The notes under the pieces were generated by a model. The model did not search any database and was not told where the DNA came from. It saw only the letters and a list, made by a program, of their open reading frames with translations. Source: a virus (Duplodnaviria; Caudoviricetes). Taken from it: a stretch of DNA of 64,000 nucleotides. The position numbers and the translations under genes are program-made. The number at the start of each line of letters is the position of its first letter. Position 1 is the stretch's first letter. Shown here one piece after another: positions 9,488 through 57,870 of the stretch. Where the stretch lies: positions 4,010 to 68,009 of the IMG/VR virus record IMGVR_UViG_3300031760_000049; one strand, written 5' to 3'.

Positions 9488-10529
9488 AGATTAATAACTG
9501 CCTGTTAAACCTTTTCCGTTTTATCAACGGGGTATATATACACCAAACAAATGGTATATATGCTAACGGGGGAGCCTAAACAGAAATGCATGGTAATCCC
9601 GTGGGAAAATAATTATTTAATCTCAATAATCTCCTAAAAGGAGATGATATATTTGATAATTTATAAAATAACAAATAATATAAATGGAAAAGTATATATT
9701 GGATTAACTACCTGTTCTTTAGAATATAGATGGGGAAGACATCTTACAGAAGGTAGAAATGAAAAGAATGAAAAACATTTATATAAATCTATGAGAAAAT
9801 ATGGATTAGAAAATTTCTCTATTGAACAAATTGATTCCACTAACAATTTTAAAGAATTAGGAGAATTAGAAAGAAAATATATTAAGCAATATGATTCTCA
9901 AAATCCTAATAAAGGATATAATTTAACTGCTGGTGGAGAGTCGAATCAATGGGATGCGAATCCCGCAGCAAAACTAACATATGACGAAGTAGTTCAAATT
10001 AGAGAAATTTATGCCATGGGAGAATTAAGACTTCAAGAATGTTGGGAAATGTTTAAAGATAAAATTTCTTATTCTGCATTTCAAAAAGTTTGGGATGGTA
10101 TTACATGGCAAGGAATAATGAATGAAGTTTATACGAAAGAAAATATTGAACTTCATAGTCATCAAAAAGCTAATCCAGGAAGTAAAAATGGTAATGCTAT
10201 ATTAACAGAAGAGCAAGTTTTAGAAGCAAGAAAATTCTATGTTAATCATACATTACAAGAAACTTTTGATAAATATGGACAAAATTATTCTAAAGATGGT
10301 TTTAGAGGAGTTTTAACAAGAACTTATTCTCATATTCCTATTTATCAAAAAATGAAAAAACAATGGATATTAAACAATGAGATTATTGATATAAATAATT
10401 ATAAACCTGTATCGACTATCTCCGAATCGGGAGAGTAAGATTGCTATTGATACGCAATTTGAAATGGGTTTTGCGAGTTTTTAACTCGTTAAGATATAGT
10501 CAGTCCCTATGGAAACATAGGAATCGACG
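9488..10529 (+). mobile_element. Group I intron 1 of nrdD (contains GIY-YIG homing endonuclease)
   Basis: The 5' exon ends in U and P1 is GGUAG/CUGCC with a U.G pair. P7 is GACUA 10414 / UAGUC 10497. The terminal nucleotide is G10529, and splicing restores the frame. Confidence 0.92.
9644..10438 (+). CDS. Intron-encoded GIY-YIG homing endonuclease
   Basis: IYKITNNINGKVYIG...RWGRH...E...GYN catalytic domain followed by two HTH-like repeats. The true start may be TTG 9653. Confidence 0.92.
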   Translation: MIYLIIYKITNNINGKVYIGLTTCSLEYRWGRHLTEGRNEKNEKHLYKSMRKYGLENFSIEQIDSTNNFKELGELERKYIKQYDSQNPNKGYNLTAGGESNQWDANPAAKLTYDEVVQIREIYAMGELRLQECWEMFKDKISYSAFQKVWDGITWQGIMNEVYTKENIELHSHQKANPGSKNGNAILTEEQVLEARKFYVNHTLQETFDKYGQNYSKDGFRGVLTRTYSHIPIYQKMKKQWILNNEIIDINNYKPVSTISESGE

Positions 10530-11210
10530 GGTGTATCAGCTACTCATCTTGATTGGACGATGGTTCCATATGTAAGAAAATCATTTCTTAAACATTATAT
10601 AGAATCATGGATTATAGATTCAGAGAAATTTAAAGATTTGAATCTAATGGATATGTTATTTGATGATTATATTGATGATTTTGGAATAGTACGTAATAAA
10701 TATGAAGATTGGGTTGATGAAAATAAATCTGAATTCTTTAAATTAACTGGTTTAACAGAAAAAGATTTTAGATTAGATAATAAAGATAATTTAAATCCTA
10801 AATATTATCAACAAGCTTTATATAAAACTATAAATGAAACTAAACAAGCCGTAGAGGGAATGTATCATAATCTTAATACATTACAAAGTAGATCAGGTAA
10901 CCAATTACCTTTTACATCTATCAATTATGGTACTTGTACATTACCGGAAGGTAGAATGATTATTAAAGTATTGCTTGAAGGTAGTATTAAAGGTGTAGGT
11001 AAATTTCATAAAACAAGTATTTTTCCTTGTGGTATTTTCCAATGTATGAAAGGTGTTAATCTTAAGCCAGGTGATGCTAACTATGATTTATTCCAATTAG
11101 CATTAAAATCTACTTCACAAAGAATGTATCCAAATTATGCAAATGTAGATTGGAGCGGCAATGCGGGATATGATCGAGATGATCCGAAAACCTATTTCTC
11201 GACAATGGGT
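10530..11210 (+). CDS. nrdD: NrdD exon 2
   Basis: GVSATHLDW...QAVEGMYHNLNT...SRSGNQLPFTSINYG...IFP...YPNY...STMG. Confidence 0.93.
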
Positions 11211-12074
11211 TTGTAAAACTACTAGCTCATTTAAAATCTTTTGAACCGTGCCAGCGGGTGTCTGTATTACAGTTATATTGAATTTGGCGATTCAATGGTA
11301 TTTTATTGTACAGGCTAACGGTTAGGTCTAGAACAGATGAGACCGTGCTAAGATTCATCATAATATTCACATAGGAGGAAATATGTGGATATATAAAATA
11401 ACAAATATTCAAAATAATAAAGTTTATATTGGACAAACAATTAGACCAATAGAACAAAGATTTAAAAGACACATTAATGATGCTTTAAATAATATATTAG
11501 ATACTCATTTTGCAAGAGCGATTAGAAAATATGGAAAAGAAAATTTTATAATAGAACAAATAGATACAGCTCAAACGCAAGATGAATTAAATCAAAAAGA
11601 ACGATATTGGATACAATATTATAATTCAGTTAATGAAGGATATAATGAAACAGATGCTATTTCCAAATGTGGCGGAAATACGTATCAATCAAAAACTAAA
11701 GAAGAAATGGAAGTTATTAAAGAAAAAATTCGACAAACAAAAATAGGCTCTAAAAATCCTATGGCGCGAAAAATTAAAAGAACAAATATAATTACTAATG
11801 AAATTGATGTTTTTGATACTGTAATTAGTTGTGCCAAAGCTTGTGGAATTAAGAATGGAAAAACTTCTATATCAGATAGATTAAATGGAAAAACAAAATC
11901 TCCATTTAAGAAAACTTGGATTTTTGAATATTATGATGAATAAAGTGTATCGACTATCCCTGATGAATGTAAGGGAGTAGGGTGAGAGATAGGCACTCAC
12001 TCGAAGCGGAAGACAACTCCACAATTGTGGAATGAAGATATAGTCAGCGCCTATGGGGACATGGGAATAACGCG
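11211..12074 (+). mobile_element. Group I intron 2 of nrdD (contains GIY-YIG homing endonuclease)
   Basis: It splits the catalytic MG|CRT motif. P1 is AUGGGU/GCUCAU, P7 is GACUA 11952 / UAGUC 12041, and the terminal nucleotide is G12074. Confidence 0.92.
11383..11943 (+). CDS. Intron-encoded GIY-YIG homing endonuclease with C-terminal NUMOD-like DNA-binding domain
   Basis: IYKITNIQNNKVYIGQT...RFKRH...E..W...GYN; C-terminal FDTVISCAK helix; RBS AGGAGG. Confidence 0.92.
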   Translation: MWIYKITNIQNNKVYIGQTIRPIEQRFKRHINDALNNILDTHFARAIRKYGKENFIIEQIDTAQTQDELNQKERYWIQYYNSVNEGYNETDAISKCGGNTYQSKTKEEMEVIKEKIRQTKIGSKNPMARKIKRTNIITNEIDVFDTVISCAKACGIKNGKTSISDRLNGKTKSPFKKTWIFEYYDE

Positions 12075-12566
12075 TGTAGAACTGCTAATGGATATGATAT
12101 TAATGGATTTGGTCTATTGAAAGATGGTCGTGGTAATATTGCACCATCAACTATTATTTTACCAACTCTTGCAATGGAAGCAAAAGAGAAATGTAAAGAT
12201 AATGAAATTAAACTTGTTGATACATTTATGGAAATTTTAGACCAAGCAATATCAGATTGTAAAGATGGTTTAATTGAAAGATTTGAACATATATGCTCAC
12301 AATCTGCAGATTCCGCGGCTTTCCAATATGAGAATGGAACTATGAAAGGATATATACCTGAAGAGGGTATCCGCTCCGCTTTAAAACATGGTACATTAGC
12401 TATTGGACAATTAGGATTAGCTGAAACGCTTCAGATTTTGATAGGGTGCGACCATAGTGAAGATAGAGGGATGGTGCTTGCACACAAGATAGAGCAATTA
12501 TTTGAAAAGCGTTGTAAGCAATTCAAAGAGAAATATAAATTGAATTTTGGTGTATATTATACTCCT
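12075..12566 (+). CDS. nrdD: NrdD exon 3
   Basis: CRTANG...GRGNIAPSTIILP...GTLAIGQLGLAE...NFGVYYTP. Confidence 0.93.
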
Positions 12567-12895
12567 AAACTACTCGGATTGGGAGTCGCATAAGTGATTA
12601 TGTGAAAAAAATAACCTCATTAAACGGGCAAGCGTAATAAGCTGGTAAGAAAGGCTAAACCAAAAAGGCAAGCTAATCCCGTAGGATAAAATTATCTTTT
12701 ACTGGACAGAGATGGTTTTGTTCTCTAACGACTATCGAAAGTATAGCTTAAGAGAAAAACTTAAGTGAATAAATGAGTAGAGTACAGTTATAATATAACT
12801 GGAAAGATGAGGCTCTTATTATTTGGTAATAGAATAATAAGATGATAATATAGTCTAAACCCCTTATAAATATCGGAAAACCGAGGGTAGAATTG
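12567..12895 (+). mobile_element. Group I intron 3 of nrdD (329 nt, no ORF)
   Basis: It splits TP|AE. P1 is ACUCCU/GGGAGU, P10 is CUCGG/CCGAG, P7 is GACUA 12730 / UAGUC 12851, and the terminal nucleotide is G12895. Confidence 0.92.
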
Positions 12896-13390
12896 GCCGA
12901 GAATTTATGTTATACAGCAATGAATAAATTCAAAATTCAATACGGAGAGTTAGAAAATATTTCAGACAAGGATTTCTTCACAAATAGTATGCACATACCA
13001 GTATGGAAGAAAATTAATCCGTTTGAGAAGATAGATTTAGAAAGTCAGTTAACAGGATATTCAAGCGCAGGATGTATTACTTATGTAGAATTTGATGCTT
13101 CTGCAAAAAAGAATTTAGAAGCACTTGAAGCAGTTGTAGTATATGCTATGGAACATGATATTCCATATTTTGCAATTAATGTGCCTATTGATACTTGTAT
13201 GGATTGCGGATATACAGATGACATTGGAAGTAATTGTCCACAATGCGGAAGTTCACGCATCCAACGTATTCGTAGAGTTACAGGTTATTTAACGGGTGAT
13301 TATAAAACTGCTTTTAATTACGGAAAAGTAAAAGAAACTGAAATGAGAGTAAAACATACAAAATTTATGAAGGAGATTGTTCATGAATGA
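12896..13390 (+). CDS. nrdD: NrdD exon 4
   Basis: AENLCY...FTNSMH...Zn ribbon CMDC...CPQC and the glycyl-radical motif RRVTGYL. Confidence 0.93.
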   Translation, partial: AENLCYTAMNKFKIQYGELENISDKDFFTNSMHIPVWKKINPFEKIDLESQLTGYSSAGCITYVEFDASAKKNLEALEAVVVYAMEHDIPYFAINVPIDTCMDCGYTDDIGSNCPQCGSSRIQRIRRVTGYLTGDYKTAFNYGKVKETEMRVKHTKFMKEIVHE

Positions 13391-13841
13391 ACTAATTGAT
13401 TATTCCTCAAAAGTGGAATCATTACCATTGTCAGAGGATGAAGAAAACAAAAAAGTAACTTTGGTAGATAAAGAAGGTAATGCCGCAAATATTGGGTTAG
13501 GTGATATGTATGAAGTTAATAAAAACTTAATGAAAAATGAACCGACTTTATCTAAAAGTAAAATTAGAGAAAAAATTACACAAATTGCGGCAGATACTCC
13601 ACATAATAATTATTATATGTTGCTATGTCGTGAATTAACAGATTATACTGTATTTATATATAATGATGATGTAGATGAATTTAAGGCGGCAATGAGAGAT
13701 TGCATTATAAACCGCGGATTTTGTAAAGGTATTGACAAACAAGAGGATGGCACTTGGGAAATTTGGATACAAACTGATAAAGATTCATTACCAAACGCAT
13801 ATTATTTCTTTAATTGTAACCAGTGCATCATCCCTTGTTAA
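13383..13841 (+). CDS. Hypothetical protein
   Basis: ORF with RBS AAGGAG before ATG 13383; translationally coupled to nrdD. Confidence 0.7.
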   Translation: MNELIDYSSKVESLPLSEDEENKKVTLVDKEGNAANIGLGDMYEVNKNLMKNEPTLSKSKIREKITQIAADTPHNNYYMLLCRELTDYTVFIYNDDVDEFKAAMRDCIINRGFCKGIDKQEDGTWEIWIQTDKDSLPNAYYFFNCNQCIIPC

Positions 13842-13853
13842 GGAGGTGAACAA

Positions 13854-14120
13854 ATGACAGTTCATATTAAGTTAAATATGGGTGCAATGTTCCAAAATGC
13901 TATGGTAATAGATGGTCAGCAATATGTTGATAATTTTGATTTTACTATAGATAATATAGATGAAAAAATTATGGAGTATTGTAATGCTCATCCTACTGTA
14001 TCAGAGATTATATTATATGGTACTGAAGAGATGCTAACTAAATTCAAGCATGATATTGAATCTAAAAATTTAGTAAATTATATGAATAAACCAATTCAAG
14101 TGATAATAAAAGGAGAATAA
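13854..14120 (+). CDS. Hypothetical protein
   Basis: 88-aa ORF with RBS AGGAGGT, within the operon. Confidence 0.7.
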   Translation: MTVHIKLNMGAMFQNAMVIDGQQYVDNFDFTIDNIDEKIMEYCNAHPTVSEIILYGTEEMLTKFKHDIESKNLVNYMNKPIQVIIKGE

Positions 14121-14121
14121 A

Positions 14122-14415
14122 ATGAAAAGATATTTAACAAAAGTAACAGAAGTATATAGATTATCAACAGAAAAGGAAGCAGAGGCTTTTTTACAAGAAC
14201 TAAAATCCAGTACAGAGTTTGAACTTGCTAAATATACAAGTATAAGAAAACAACGCAAAGAAAAAAAAGAAATTGTTGATGAGTGGATTCATTTTGAAGT
14301 AACTAAAATATTCAATGATGAAAAAGAACCCAACTGTTTAATTGGCGTTAACTATGATATTGATAGTTATATTGGACCATCAGATTATGCGGAGGTTGAA
14401 GAAAATGAATATTAA
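14122..14415 (+). CDS. Hypothetical protein
   Basis: 97-aa ORF with RBS AAGGAG, within the operon. Confidence 0.7.
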   Translation: MKRYLTKVTEVYRLSTEKEAEAFLQELKSSTEFELAKYTSIRKQRKEKKEIVDEWIHFEVTKIFNDEKEPNCLIGVNYDIDSYIGPSDYAEVEENEY

Positions 14416-14638
14416 AATGAAATTTTTAAATGATACAGCTCAAGAACCAACACGTGGAAGTGAATATGCGGCTGGCTATGATTTATATGCGTGTGAGGAT
14501 GCTTTAATCCCCGCACATGAAACTCGTAAAATTGGTACAGGATTAGCATTTGAATTGCCTAAAGATACTTTTGCAGCTATCTTCGCTCGTAGCGGACTTG
14601 CTACAAAACGTGGATTAAGACCAGCAAATTGTGTCGGT
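14405..14638 (+). CDS. dut: Trimeric dUTPase, exon 1 of 2 (spliced product 143 aa)
   Basis: AGYDL (motif 1) and ARSGLA (motif 2); ends ANCVG; RBS GGAGGT upstream of ATG 14405. Confidence 0.92.
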
Positions 14639-15781
14639 GAATAATCATAACAATTATTGATTACTCTGGAGTAAAATTGATTATTTTGGTGAATATAAAA
14701 TTCATATATAATAAACTAGAAAGGGGAATTTTATATGGCTAGAAAATCAATCGATTGGGGTACTGATGAAGATTTTATACAAAAATATGAAGAATTAAAA
14801 AGCTCAAGAAAAATGGGAGAATTTTATAAATGTGATAAATCATCAGTACTAAATCATGCTAAAAAAATAGGCTATGATGTAAATTCAAATAAACAATATA
14901 AATTATCAGATGCGGATAAAAAAGTAATTATTCAAAGTTATAGTACAAAAACATCCACCCAATTAGCACAGGAATTTAATGTATCACGAGGTATGATTAC
15001 TAAAATATGGTATGACAATCATTTAAGTGGTAAAGAAAAAACTTTTATTTCACACAAGAATGACTTAACTAATCGAGTATTTGGTAAATGGACGGTAATT
15101 AAACCTACCGATAAAAGAAGCTCTAACGGCGGCATTTATTGGCATTGCGTTTGTGAGTGCGGAAGGGAAAGGGATGTTTTAGCTCAATCTTTACTATCTA
15201 ATAAGAGCTTATCTTGTGGAGAGCATGCTAATATTTCAAAAGGTAATGCAAAAATTATAGAAATTTTAAATCATCATAATATTAAATATGAAGTAGAAAA
15301 AAAATTCTCAAGTTGTAAGGATAAACGTGAATTACCTTTTGATTTTTATATTGAAAACAATTATTTAATTGAATATGACGGACAGCAACACTTTGATAAA
15401 AATAGTATTTTTGATTATGAGTATACTCATAGGCACGATATAATCAAAAATCAATGGTGTGCAGATAATAATATTACTTTAATTAGAATTCCTTATACCC
15501 ATTATGATAATTTATGTTTACAAGATTTATTACCAGAGACAAGTCAATTTATAAAAAATATACGCCGACAATAAACCGCGGAATTAAGCTGGAACCCTAA
15601 GTCATAAGATATGGGAATCAGAACCGAAGGCTAATTTAAGATTAGTCAGGGGCAACGCATAGATGGTGAAAAGATATAATCCATCCACGAGGCCGCGGCA
15701 CCTAAAATGGTGAAAAGATATGCTGAACTTATAGAAAACTATAAGAAGTAAAAGATAAAAAGCTTTTACGATAACAAATTG
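14639..15781 (+). mobile_element. Group I intron in dut (contains a VSR-like/EDxHD-type endonuclease ORF)
   Basis: The exon ends in U and the intron ends in G15781; the splice restores VG|VCDADYRGE. P3 is CCGCGG 15576/15693 and P7 is GCAUA 15657 / UAUGC 15719. P1 could not be drawn cleanly. Confidence 0.85.
14735..15574 (+). CDS. Intron-encoded putative homing endonuclease (VSR-like/DUF559 PD-(D/E)xK domain)
   Basis: N-terminal HTH-like repeats, a DLT..FGKWTV...CVCECG...SCG Zn module, and C-terminal LPFDFY...IEYDGQQH...LIRIPY. Confidence 0.8.
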   Translation: MARKSIDWGTDEDFIQKYEELKSSRKMGEFYKCDKSSVLNHAKKIGYDVNSNKQYKLSDADKKVIIQSYSTKTSTQLAQEFNVSRGMITKIWYDNHLSGKEKTFISHKNDLTNRVFGKWTVIKPTDKRSSNGGIYWHCVCECGRERDVLAQSLLSNKSLSCGEHANISKGNAKIIEILNHHNIKYEVEKKFSSCKDKRELPFDFYIENNYLIEYDGQQHFDKNSIFDYEYTHRHDIIKNQWCADNNITLIRIPYTHYDNLCLQDLLPETSQFIKNIRRQ

Positions 15782-15979
15782 GTATGTGATGCAGATTATC
15801 GTGGAGAGTATATTGTAGCTTTACATAATGATACAGACCACGATGTTAGCATTAGTAAGGGTGAAAGAATTGCGCAAATGGTTCTTATGCCTTTTATTCC
15901 AATGGAATTTGAGAAAGTAACTGAGCTAAGTGACACTGTTCGAGGTGAAAATGGCTTTGGTTCTACTGGTACTAACTAA
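15782..15979 (+). CDS. dut: dUTPase exon 2
   Basis: DADYRGE (motif 3), RIAQ (motif 4) and RGENGFGSTG (motif 5). Confidence 0.92.
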   Translation, partial: VCDADYRGEYIVALHNDTDHDVSISKGERIAQMVLMPFIPMEFEKVTELSDTVRGENGFGSTGTN

Positions 15980-16047
15980 AAGTCCACTGGCAAGTTGGCG
16001 ACCGCCTCTCAAAACAAAAATGGATTTGGAATTTTTTCAAGCAAAAC

Positions 16048-16076
16048 TTGACTACAGTGAAAATTTTTGATATACT
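16048..16076 (+). promoter_or_regulatory. sigma-A/70-type promoter
   Basis: TTGACT-17 nt-TATACT with extended TG. Confidence 0.75.
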
Positions 16077-16100
16077 AAAGCCATAAGGAGGAGTAAACTT

Positions 16101-16610
16101 ATGGCTTTTATTTTAGCTATTGATGCCAGTACTAAAAGTACGGGAATTGCTTTATTTGAAGATACTAAATTAGTAAATACGTATTTAGCTACAGCATCTT
16201 CATCAGATGTAATTAAAAGAATACAAAAAATTATTGAACAATTAAAACCATTTCTAGTAAATTATAAAATAGATACAATTATTCTTGAGGAAGTCCGCCC
16301 TATTACAGATAAAACCCGCAAACAAAATATTCAAACGCATAGAGTCTTAATGTGGTTGCAGGCGGCAATTAATTTCCTTGTGCATGAAATATCCCCAAAA
16401 ACTAAGATTGAGTATGCTTACCCTAGTGAGTGGCGTGCTAAATGTGGAATTAAAAATGGTCGTGGAATAACAAGAGAAAAAGAAAAAGCATATGATATTG
16501 CTTTTGTTAAAAAAGAATATGGTATAGATGTAAATGACGATATTGCGGATGCTATTGGCATAGGTCATGCTTTTGTTAATCATTTAGATAATGAAATAAA
16601 TTGGGGATAA
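16101..16610 (+). CDS. RuvC-like Holliday junction resolvase
   Basis: RNase H-fold acidic residues in ILAIDASTKSTG, IILEE and NDDIADAIGIG. Confidence 0.85.
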   Translation: MAFILAIDASTKSTGIALFEDTKLVNTYLATASSSDVIKRIQKIIEQLKPFLVNYKIDTIILEEVRPITDKTRKQNIQTHRVLMWLQAAINFLVHEISPKTKIEYAYPSEWRAKCGIKNGRGITREKEKAYDIAFVKKEYGIDVNDDIADAIGIGHAFVNHLDNEINWG

Positions 16611-53489: not shown

Positions 53490-53846
53490 TTAATAACCCG
53501 CTCTGCGCATAATATAATCATAATTCATAATTTGTTCATCTGTATATGGAATCTCAACTAATGTATATCCATGCGCTCGACAATATTGCCGTTTTAAATT
53601 ATCATTATATCTTTGCTTAGCGAGTCCGCTTGCTCCACCAAATTTTGATTTAGCTACGTAATGTTGGATACCTTGAAATTCAATAAGAAAATCAAGTTCT
53701 CCACAATCATCAAATACCGCAAAATCAAATCTTAATGGTCTACCATTAGAACTTACTAAATCTGGAAATATATACTCTTCTTTAAAATTTAATTCTGCCG
53801 CTCTTAATATATCTTCTATTTTTATTTCTCCCCTTGATGCTCGCAT
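53490..53846 (-). CDS. Stand-alone VSR-like/DUF559 PD-(D/E)xK endonuclease domain
   Basis: SRGEIKI...LRFDFAVF...LIEFQGIQHY...D..K..YC...LVEIPY; same motif order as the dut-intron ORF C-terminus. Confidence 0.75.
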   Translation of the reverse strand: MRASRGEIKIEDILRAAELNFKEEYIFPDLVSSNGRPLRFDFAVFDDCGELDFLIEFQGIQHYVAKSKFGGASGLAKQRYNDNLKRQYCRAHGYTLVEIPYTDEQIMNYDYIMRRAGY

Positions 53847-53906: not shown

Positions 53907-54947
53907 CTAATTCATGAACATTAAATCACCAATATTAATTTTCTTTTTTCTTCCTCTTCGTTCTTCATCTTGTTTAATATAATATAAACCATAAATAAAA
54001 GCAGAGAATTTATCATGAGGAATACTTCTTGACTCAGGCTTTAAAATAATATTAATGCCTTCATTATCCTCAACAAGATTTAACATTTGATTTTTTAATG
54101 ATGTAGTTAAAATAAAAGGCATTAAATGCATATTACGCTGGTCAGTACTCATATTTTGACCGACTTTAGTATCCATTAATTTTGCTTTAGCTGTTACTTC
54201 ATCAATTAATAACTTAACTTTACCACTCATCATTTGTACTTTTGCATAAGAATACATTTCCGTATTAATAGGCGCATTTGCTTTAATAAGATATAATGCA
54301 TCACTCTCAACGCCAGAACCTTTTATCTTTTTATATGGTTCAACTGCATCTTCTGATGTACCACCCTCAACACCAAAAGGAGGTAATTCATCCCCTGTTT
54401 CTGGGTCAACCTGTGCTTTAACTAAAAAATCAACTAATCCTGCACCTACACCATTCGCATCAATAGCAACAACACGAGCCTTATATTTATAAAATAATTT
54501 CTTAATATTTATCGCTTGGTCTTCAAAATGTTCTGCTTCATAACTATAAAGATTCACTAAAGACTTTAACGAAGCTCCAGTTGGTTGCGGAGTTACTTTA
54601 AATACAGAAACCTCAGTTGTACATTTGAAACGGCCTACATCAACTCCAAGTATGTAATAAGCACTTTTAGATGAGCGACCGCTAAACTCATATTCAGGTT
54701 GTAATAATACTCTATGTTTATCAAAATTATCAGATGAGAAGAAAGCATTTTCTGCATCTCCGCTCCATACAGAACAATACTCACGGTCAAATGAATCTTC
54801 ATTATAAGTACCAGATAATTTTAACTGGTCTACGAAATCTTCATCCAATAATCCTTCAGTAATGGGTGTCTTATAAGTTCCACCCATAATCATTACTTCA
54901 TCAGGTTCAATTAATGATTGAATTAACAATTCTATTAACTTATCGTA
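53907..54947 (-). CDS. terL: Terminase large subunit, exon 2 (nuclease domain)
   Basis: YDKLIEL...FDREYCSVW...LGVDVGR...AIDANGVG...HDKFSA RNase H-like acidic residues. Confidence 0.9.
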   Translation of the reverse strand, partial: YDKLIELLIQSLIEPDEVMIMGGTYKTPITEGLLDEDFVDQLKLSGTYNEDSFDREYCSVWSGDAENAFFSSDNFDKHRVLLQPEYEFSGRSSKSAYYILGVDVGRFKCTTEVSVFKVTPQPTGASLKSLVNLYSYEAEHFEDQAINIKKLFYKYKARVVAIDANGVGAGLVDFLVKAQVDPETGDELPPFGVEGGTSEDAVEPYKKIKGSGVESDALYLIKANAPINTEMYSYAKVQMMSGKVKLLIDEVTAKAKLMDTKVGQNMSTDQRNMHLMPFILTTSLKNQMLNLVEDNEGINIILKPESRSIPHDKFSAFIYGLYYIKQDEERRGRKKKINIGDLMFMN

Positions 54948-55270
54948 TAATTTTATTTAATATAAAATTGGACTATTTCTTAATCTAAATATTTTCAAAT
55001 ATAACTATAAGCAGTATAATTGAAATATCTAAAAATTTTTAGATTCCTCGCGCTTGGGTGATAGATAATTCTACCATGTGGTCTTTGACACCACTCCTAC
55101 TCTACTCACTTCCATATACTTTATGTGTTTTCGATAGTCTCTGAACCTTCCGCCTAAACGGCTTGGCACACCGTTACATCTTTCAATGCTTTCAGTGTTA
55201 GCAACTGATTAGTCACACCCTCTTCTTGAGGTTCACGAGGTTTTAGTTCGCCTACGAACCTTTTCAGTCT
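54948..55270 (-). mobile_element. Group I intron in terL (323 nt, no ORF, terminal A)
   Basis: P1 is UUCGCU/GGCGAA, P10 is UACGA/UCGUA, and P7 is GACUA/UAGUC. Splicing gives KNSFA|YDKL in frame (592 aa). Confidence 0.88.
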
Positions 55271-56008
55271 AGCGAACGAATTTTTCCATCCTGCAGTAGT
55301 AATATAAATCTGTGACTTATTAACTACCTCATGATTATTACGAGTACCATCTGGCAGTAATCTATTTACATTAGTCGTAGGGATAATAATTTCATTCAAT
55401 GCAGATTGATCAATAAGTACACATTCTTCCATTAAACCACCCGTACGACGCTGACCACGAGAACTTTCCTTTGCTGCCAGAATATCAATAGACGAATCAT
55501 TCTTAAAAATATATTTAACATCATTTTTTGATTTTTTAGATACACCACGCTCAAAATTAATCTCATTCTGAAATGCAGGTACTAATTTACAAATTTCTTC
55601 AATCTTAGCTATTGTAATACTTGCTGCTTGTTCTTTACCTCCAGTAGTAACAAATAAATGACTACCTGGATATAAGATACAACGTAACATCAATACCATC
55701 ATAGATAAGAAAGATTTTGAATAAGCACGGGGAAAAGTCGCATATACAAATCTATGTCGCATAACCACTCGCAAAAATATACGTTGGTAGAAATAAAATC
55801 GAAATCCTTTATATTCATTTAATGTGCCATTTTCTTTTGCTTCTGCAAAACCTGACATTGAATCAACTAATAAATCTGGATATTGACGATAAAAAGCAAT
55901 TAGTGGTCGTAAATTATTTACTTGCGCAGCTAGTCGCTCTTCTGACAATCCCTGTTTTGTTAAGTTACCTTTCGATGAAGATAATTCTAAAATACTTTGT
56001 AAACTCAT
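55271..56008 (-). CDS. terL: Terminase large subunit, exon 1 (ATPase domain)
   Basis: FYFYQR, Walker A-like FPRAYSKS, RGQRRTGGLMEE (Walker B) and ITTAG (motif III). Confidence 0.9.
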
Positions 56009-57255: not shown

Positions 57256-57870
57256 TTAAGTCATAGCTTCAGTAGAATCATATCCATATTGTTGATGTAT
57301 TTTAATATGACAGTTTTGACACAATGTAATACCATTAGATACTTCATATCTTAATTTTGGATAATGATGCCATGAATAGATATGATGAGCATTTATTTTT
57401 TCTTTACTTCCACATTTGACGCATTTATAGTTATCTTTTTTATACACTTTTAAACGCCAATCTTTATATTCAGTAGAGTCATGCCTATCATTAATTTTAG
57501 AAGTACCGCCTTTCCAGTTCCAATGATTTTCTCCTTTAGGCATATGTCTATCTTTATTATAACATTCAACACTACAATATTTATCTTCTGAAGCTTTCGC
57601 AATAAAAATTTTTTGACAGGTTGGACATTTTCGATTTTTATTTTTAATACTATGTGAAATATTATAGCACTCTCTTGAACAAAAACGATTACTATTTTGT
57701 TTTAAACCTTTAAAAGTTTTTCCGCATACTTCACATATATATTGTTTTGTATTGCGAGAATGAAAAATAGAATAGCATTGTCGACAGCAAAAATTATGTT
57801 TAGATAACTTACTTTCATATTTTTCAAATTGCGTATTACAATTATCACATTTAATTGTTACTTTTGGCAT
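57256..57870 (-). CDS. HNH endonuclease with three N-terminal Cys4 Zn-finger repeats
   Basis: Repeats CxxC...FCSxxCY; HNH core CVKCG...AHHI...NGITLCQNCHIKIH. Confidence 0.88.
   Translation of the reverse strand: MPKVTIKCDNCNTQFEKYESKLSKHNFCCRQCYSIFHSRNTKQYICEVCGKTFKGLKQNSNRFCSRECYNISHSIKNKNRKCPTCQKIFIAKASEDKYCSVECYNKDRHMPKGENHWNWKGGTSKINDRHDSTEYKDWRLKVYKKDNYKCVKCGSKEKINAHHIYSWHHYPKLRYEVSNGITLCQNCHIKIHQQYGYDSTEAMT

Follow-up and report, generated by a model that had tools for sequence, protein, structure and literature searches.

Published natural exceptions to the terminal guanosine of group I introns (omega-G) are few, namely Cbu.L1917 and ND5-717. Cbu.L1917 is an intron of the Coxiella burnetii 23S rRNA which, in the work of Raghavan et al. 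in 2007, is said to lack the canonical omega-G. Elsewhere omega-G is called universally conserved (PMC9223047, PMC3984707). The mitochondrial ND5-717 intron of hexacorals (sea anemone, mushroom coral) ends in A, and its exons are exactly ligated in vivo (PMC6545197, PMC8146996), which demonstrates that splicing can proceed with a terminal A. Introns in the gene for the large terminase subunit (terL) are, as such, already known: group I introns that carry HNH endonuclease genes have been described in terL of Bacillus phages of the Bastillevirinae, where a single terL may contain two or three of them and where, for part of the introns, splicing is limited to in vivo conditions (PMC11878797).

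The intron considered here interrupts terL in a 64,000-nt stretch of DNA (the window) from a viral record of 68 kb, judged about 46% complete, that represents an uncultured cattle-gut phage. Exon 1 (55271..56008, minus strand) is an open reading frame of 246 codons for the ATPase half, ending in KNSFA and collinear with intronless homologues. Exon 2 (53907..54947, minus strand) is an open reading frame for the 346-aa nuclease half, which begins with YDKL and was likewise delimited against intronless homologues. Both halves match terminase large-subunit profiles (phrog_2) and also the SPbeta/YonF-type terminases of large Firmicutes phages.

Between the exons lies a 323-nt, IA-like group I intron without an endonuclease gene (54948..55270, minus strand), which is identified by an Rfam match, by an exact gap against an intronless relative and by compensatory changes. 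The Rfam family Intron_gpI (RF00028) aligns over its whole model (positions 1-253) to 54951-55297 on the minus strand, with E 6e-7 and 34.9 bits; this score lies below the gathering threshold of 50, which is a curated cut-off and not a biological feature, and the match is visible in E-value mode only. A large insertion between P7 and P3' depresses the score. Across the whole window there was no match at gathering thresholds, and the terL intron was the sole match in E-value mode. The sequence-only reading had also claimed introns in nrdD (8816-13390, plus strand) and dut (14639-15781, plus strand), for which Rfam gave no match over 8500-16200, even at E 0.1.

All helices of the ribozyme are on the minus strand. 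P1 pairs the exon strand GUUCGCU (55271..55277) with the guide strand GGCGAAC (55246..55252), placing U55271 in a U.G pair with G55252 at the 5' splice site; almost every family member keeps its 7 bp, and the G-C/C-G swaps seen across 21 relatives are compensatory. Directly 5' of this guide strand, the P10 guide UCGUA (55253..55257) pairs with UACGA (54943..54947), the first five bases of exon 2. The long-range helix P3 joins CCUCGUG (55234..55240) to CGCGAGG (55046..55052), with double-sided changes at two positions and zero non-pairs, and P8 (54982..55045) follows directly, its stem formed by 55045-55035 and 54992-54982 and its loop containing a remnant of an HNH gene at about 55014-54986. 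P7 consists of the 5' strand G-A-GACUA with a bulged A (55135..55141), aligned to the Rfam consensus, and the 3' strand UAGUCC (54970..54975); G55139 and C54971 form what we take, by homology to Tetrahymena G264-C311, to be the G-binding pair. P7 and J8/7 both agree with the Rfam consensus. The P9/P9.0 hairpin (54949..54969, stem 54969-54962/54956-54949) adjoins P7 on one side and the last intron base on the other. About 80 nt between 55134 and 55053 fold into hairpins with compensatory changes (the P7.1/P7.2 region), and such extra helices between the 5' strand of P7 and the 3' strand of P3 are a feature of subgroup IA. In a RNAalifold analysis of 12 endonuclease-trimmed members, compensatory changes were found in P1, P3, P4, P5, P6a, P7.1 and P8, with nearly no non-pairs; the ribozyme is under purifying selection. 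The sequence-only reading had called this element a genuine group I intron, which is borne out by the Rfam match, P1/P10 and the covarying core, and its coordinates for P1, P10, P9 and P7 all check on the minus strand. Two further hairpins that covary are found between P4 and the 5' strand of P3 (55201-55233, minus strand), an unusual site for group I peripheral helices.

The intron ends are fixed by comparison with uninterrupted genes. The 5' exon ends in UUCGCU at 55271, and the 3' exon begins with UACGA at 54947. Among 80 viral terL homologues, all but one are uninterrupted at the intron site (marked here by a slash) and read KNSFA/YDKL, with the consensus [WYF]KN[ST][FY][AP]/[YF][DENQ]K[LQ]; the four codons around the junction show synonymous third-position changes among the homologues (for example in L001). 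The 64.9-kb contig L207, from a 90-93% identical phage, carries an intronless 592-aa terL, and its alignment with the window has a gap of exactly 323 nt at GCT/TAC. Moving the boundaries by one base in either direction would yield GCA or AAC. This leaves no ambiguity about the ends, and the intron therefore runs from 55270 to 54948 with A as its last base. The junction proposed from the sequence alone is thus upheld by the roughly 80 intronless homologues and by the exact gap. In some relatives with an otherwise intact terL (L093:6390-6407 and several other loci), the conserved Trp codon of the GWKNSFA motif is TGA, which suggests that TGA may be read as Trp in those phages, in a code-4-like recoding.

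Pairing with the guide leads to the same position. The P10 guide immediately precedes the guide strand of P1, on its 5' side, in 21/21 complete introns, and in all 21 the best P10 register, of 4-6 bp (5 bp in the window), coincides with the junction defined by homology. P10 also covaries with exon 2 inside the group of A-ending introns (UCGUA/UACGA, UUGUA/UACAA, UGAUA/UAUCA and UCAUA/UAUGA), and the P9 hairpin, whose stem varies among relatives yet stays paired, stops one base before the 3' site. P1 and P10 place the 3' splice site identically in A- and G-ending introns. The repeated UUCG in exon 1 does permit a second P1 register (UUCGU/GCGAA, with the 5' site after U55276), and splicing from there to the next G, at 54944, would give an in-frame product, KNS-Y-KL. 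That the intron is in fact removed in this way is extremely improbable: it would delete the F-A-Y-D codons, which about 80 homologues retain with synonymous changes, the A-ending relatives L087, L089, L090, L110 and L125 have no G at that place, and P10 does not fit the shifted register.

The terminal A itself recurs in independent assemblies. A 1034-nt contig (X2), which comes from a different cattle-gut sample and study, matches 54700-55399 without a difference and so has the A at 54948. A 1965-nt contig (X3) from a third study, with a depth of about 95x, spans the whole stretch as a 96% variant, and none of its 30 differences affects 54948. The four that touch the ribozyme core fall in loops, convert U.G to C-G in P6a or preserve a wobble in P10. 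In 13 further assemblies from close relatives whose intron holds an endonuclease gene (HEG+), the tail is the same (AAAAUUA/UACGAU). The base was checked on assembled contigs rather than on raw reads, and the record is itself assembled from a metagenome, so that a sequencing or assembly error might be suspected; however, no fewer than 15 independent contigs, drawn from various samples and studies, carry the same base, and seven other diverged family members also end in A. We regard the chance of an error as negligible and this explanation as already effectively refuted.

A survey of homologous terL introns at the same site, by pattern scans, gave 26 distinct introns, 17 ending in G and 9 in A. 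The latter are those of the window, L084, L087, L089, L090, L093, L110 and a near-identical pair, L125 and L176. With about one-third of the same-site introns ending in A, the terminal A is a conserved, rare exception of the published kind and not an error. The sequence-only reading had put the window intron forward as the second natural omega-A ribozyme, which does not hold: ND5-717 had been published besides Cbu.L1917 (PMC6545197, PMC8146996), and the window intron is one of nine in its own family.

The two endings are interleaved among relatives. L110 (A) and L120 (G) have near-identical tails and differ in the last base, and in a tree of ribozyme cores the branches with good support require a minimum of two changes of state, with four on the best tree. 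When all A-ending introns were constrained to a single clade, the AU test gave p 0.029, and when only the group with the AAUUA tail was constrained, p 0.053; the rejection of a single origin of the A state is therefore weak to borderline, with recombination among parts of the intron as a possible confounder. The P7 strands are the same in A- and G-ending introns, so the G-binding pair is alike in both classes, and the earlier description of this pair in the window as normal stands. No second-site change tied to the terminal base was detected, as none of about 280 alignment columns separates the classes; the best column reaches p of about 0.005 before correction over these columns.

The sequence-only reading suggested that slower exon ligation could throttle or time terminase production; a regulatory role of this sort for the terminal A we consider unlikely. 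The A does persist in many diverged, mobile copies, and a rationale involving hydrolysis and circularization has been published for ND5-717 (PMC8146996). Yet A and G alternate among close same-site relatives such as L110 and L120, with at least two changes of state, and no second-site change accompanies the switches. Such a mixture within one mobile family points to tolerance more than to a dedicated regulatory device.

Several observations were made alongside this survey. The terL genes of L110, L148, L162, L163, L106 and L122 are broken at two to four places and appear to hold several introns each, at this site and at others. Same-site introns are also carried by contigs that had been assigned to genome bins of Lachnospiraceae and Acutalibacteraceae (L206, CAVKBL010000002.1, and L205), which hints at Clostridia as possible hosts of this phage group. 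Among the cultured phages of the phage collection we found no same-site intron and core matches only; the P4-P7 core is 78-82% identical over about 75 nt to other phage IA-type introns, and about 115 other loci share the same core motif. An automated search for splice sites at these loci, combining P1, P10 and an open frame, was discarded when its positive controls failed. An apparent variation of the terminal base (G/C/U) in L115, L159 and L200 was traced to synonymous variation of an Ala codon that lies within an exon for DNA polymerase.

The family also differs in its endonuclease content. Close relatives have an 845-nt intron with a gene for a 165-aa NUMOD4+HNH_3 endonuclease in P8, the window copy lacks about 520 nt of this region, and intronless 592-aa terL alleles fall in the same 90% protein cluster. 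An intron-encoded endonuclease together with presence/absence polymorphism at one site identifies, on sequence grounds, a mobile (homing) intron, of which the window copy is by the same comparison an endonuclease-less deletion derivative; the mobile intron is common among phages of the cattle and pig gut. Between the window and the A-bearing HEG+ relatives, dN/dS is 0.03-0.04 at a dS of 0.34-0.65 in both terL exons, and the introns differ at about 9 of 323 shared positions. Low intron divergence within diverged terL alleles fits recent homing into a functional terL. Near-identical introns in diverged but constrained genes indicate that the A-ending intron has spread among alleles under strong purifying selection, a spread that would be hard to reconcile with a splicing-dead element.

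Two other endonuclease-like genes lie near terL. One, of 204 aa (57256-57870, minus strand), belongs to the HNH type, is located between a 410-aa ORF and a YonG_N-like gene, and is missing from the 90% identical phage L207, where the alignment has a gap of about 740 nt; it looks like the insertion of a putative free-standing homing endonuclease gene. The other is a 118-aa ORF between terL and the portal gene (53490-53846, minus strand) that matches phrog_9084 (homing endonuclease) and, weakly, DUF2726; it is found in intron-bearing and intronless relatives alike and is thus not tied to the terL intron. Near the end of the window, two equal-sized pairs of ORFs (164 aa on the minus strand and 148 aa on the plus strand, at 62406-62900 and 63160-63654) lie 754 nt apart, which suggests a tandem duplication.

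It remains to be considered whether an A-ending intron might be unable to finish splicing, leaving terL dead or acting as two separately made halves. For this reading speak the view of omega-G as essential for the second step, the position of the insertion between two domains, and the exon-1 frame, which without splicing runs into the intron and gives the 284-aa ORF (55154..56008, minus strand) foreseen by the sequence-only reading. In the one RNA library among the runs, the contigs over either splice site were likewise unspliced, and the joints listed did not include an exact 54947/55271 one; as assembled contigs, they count neither for nor against splicing. We nevertheless judge it very unlikely, since both exons have a dN/dS of 0.03-0.04 in the A-bearing phages, the intron spreads with an intact endonuclease gene, and among the A-ending introns the covariation of P10 and P9 is maintained. 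Exon 2, for its part, has no preceding ATG or obvious ribosome site, and its earliest possible start is a TTG six codons in.

Our preferred reading, which we hold with good confidence, is that of a genuine IA-like intron, an endonuclease-less derivative ending in A, that most likely undergoes ordinary two-step splicing. In the first step, free guanosine in the unchanged P7 pocket would attack after U55271. The P9/P9.0 hairpin, whose end is a single base away from the 3' splice site, would fix that site together with the 5-bp P10 that adjoins P1 on the guide; the terminal A would then stand in for omega-G, and exon joining would produce KNSFA-YDKL. According to established mutational work on Tetrahymena, replacing omega-G by A severely hampers the second step if the G-binding pair is left as it is, which counts against this proposal because the pair is unchanged in the window intron. 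We infer that splicing occurs and that in this family it is of little consequence which base comes last, since helices hold that base in place. More tentatively, and with somewhat less than even expectation, we suggest that the last nucleotide may be nearly free (A or G), with P9.0/P9 and P10 holding the 3' site and the second step proceeding at biologically sufficient rates with a terminal A in an unaltered pocket.

The terL omega-A case demonstrates no new mechanism or regulation. What it adds is an omega-A exception in a virus and in an essential late gene, A-ending introns that are still mobile, and the coexistence of A and G versions at one site with an identical G-binding pocket. Natural near-isogenic pairs of the L110/L120 type offer material for measuring the contribution of the terminal G. 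Annotation tools that demand a terminal G would mis-map such introns.

Compared with other phage introns, the P4-P7 core resembles that of FelixO1-like DNA polymerase introns and of the recA intron of Bacillus phage 0305phi8-36, whereas the genes and sites differ. The Bastillevirinae terL introns are likewise mobile and of group I, and they too interrupt the large terminase gene in large Firmicutes phages, but they reside in another terL family (that of the window is of the SPbeta/YonF type) and at another insertion site; the passages searched mention no terminal-base anomaly (PMC11878797). As expected of a natural omega-A intron of the ND5-717 and Cbu.L1917 kind, the terL intron has a terminal A at a junction established apart from the intron model, together with an otherwise canonical core. 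Cbu.L1917 is, like the terL intron, a group I intron of the bacterial world that lacks the canonical omega-G, but it is a single fixed element in rRNA, in contrast to a polymorphic mobile family in a protein-coding gene. ND5-717 resembles the terL intron in its essential protein-coding gene, its terminal A and its large P8 insertion, which in the terL family is found in the HEG+ relatives. It differs in being organellar, obligatory and vertically inherited, in having no homing endonuclease, in carrying host genes in P8 and in that some of its forms are removed by back-splicing, whereas the terL family is viral, optional and mobile, with A and G endings mixed at one site.
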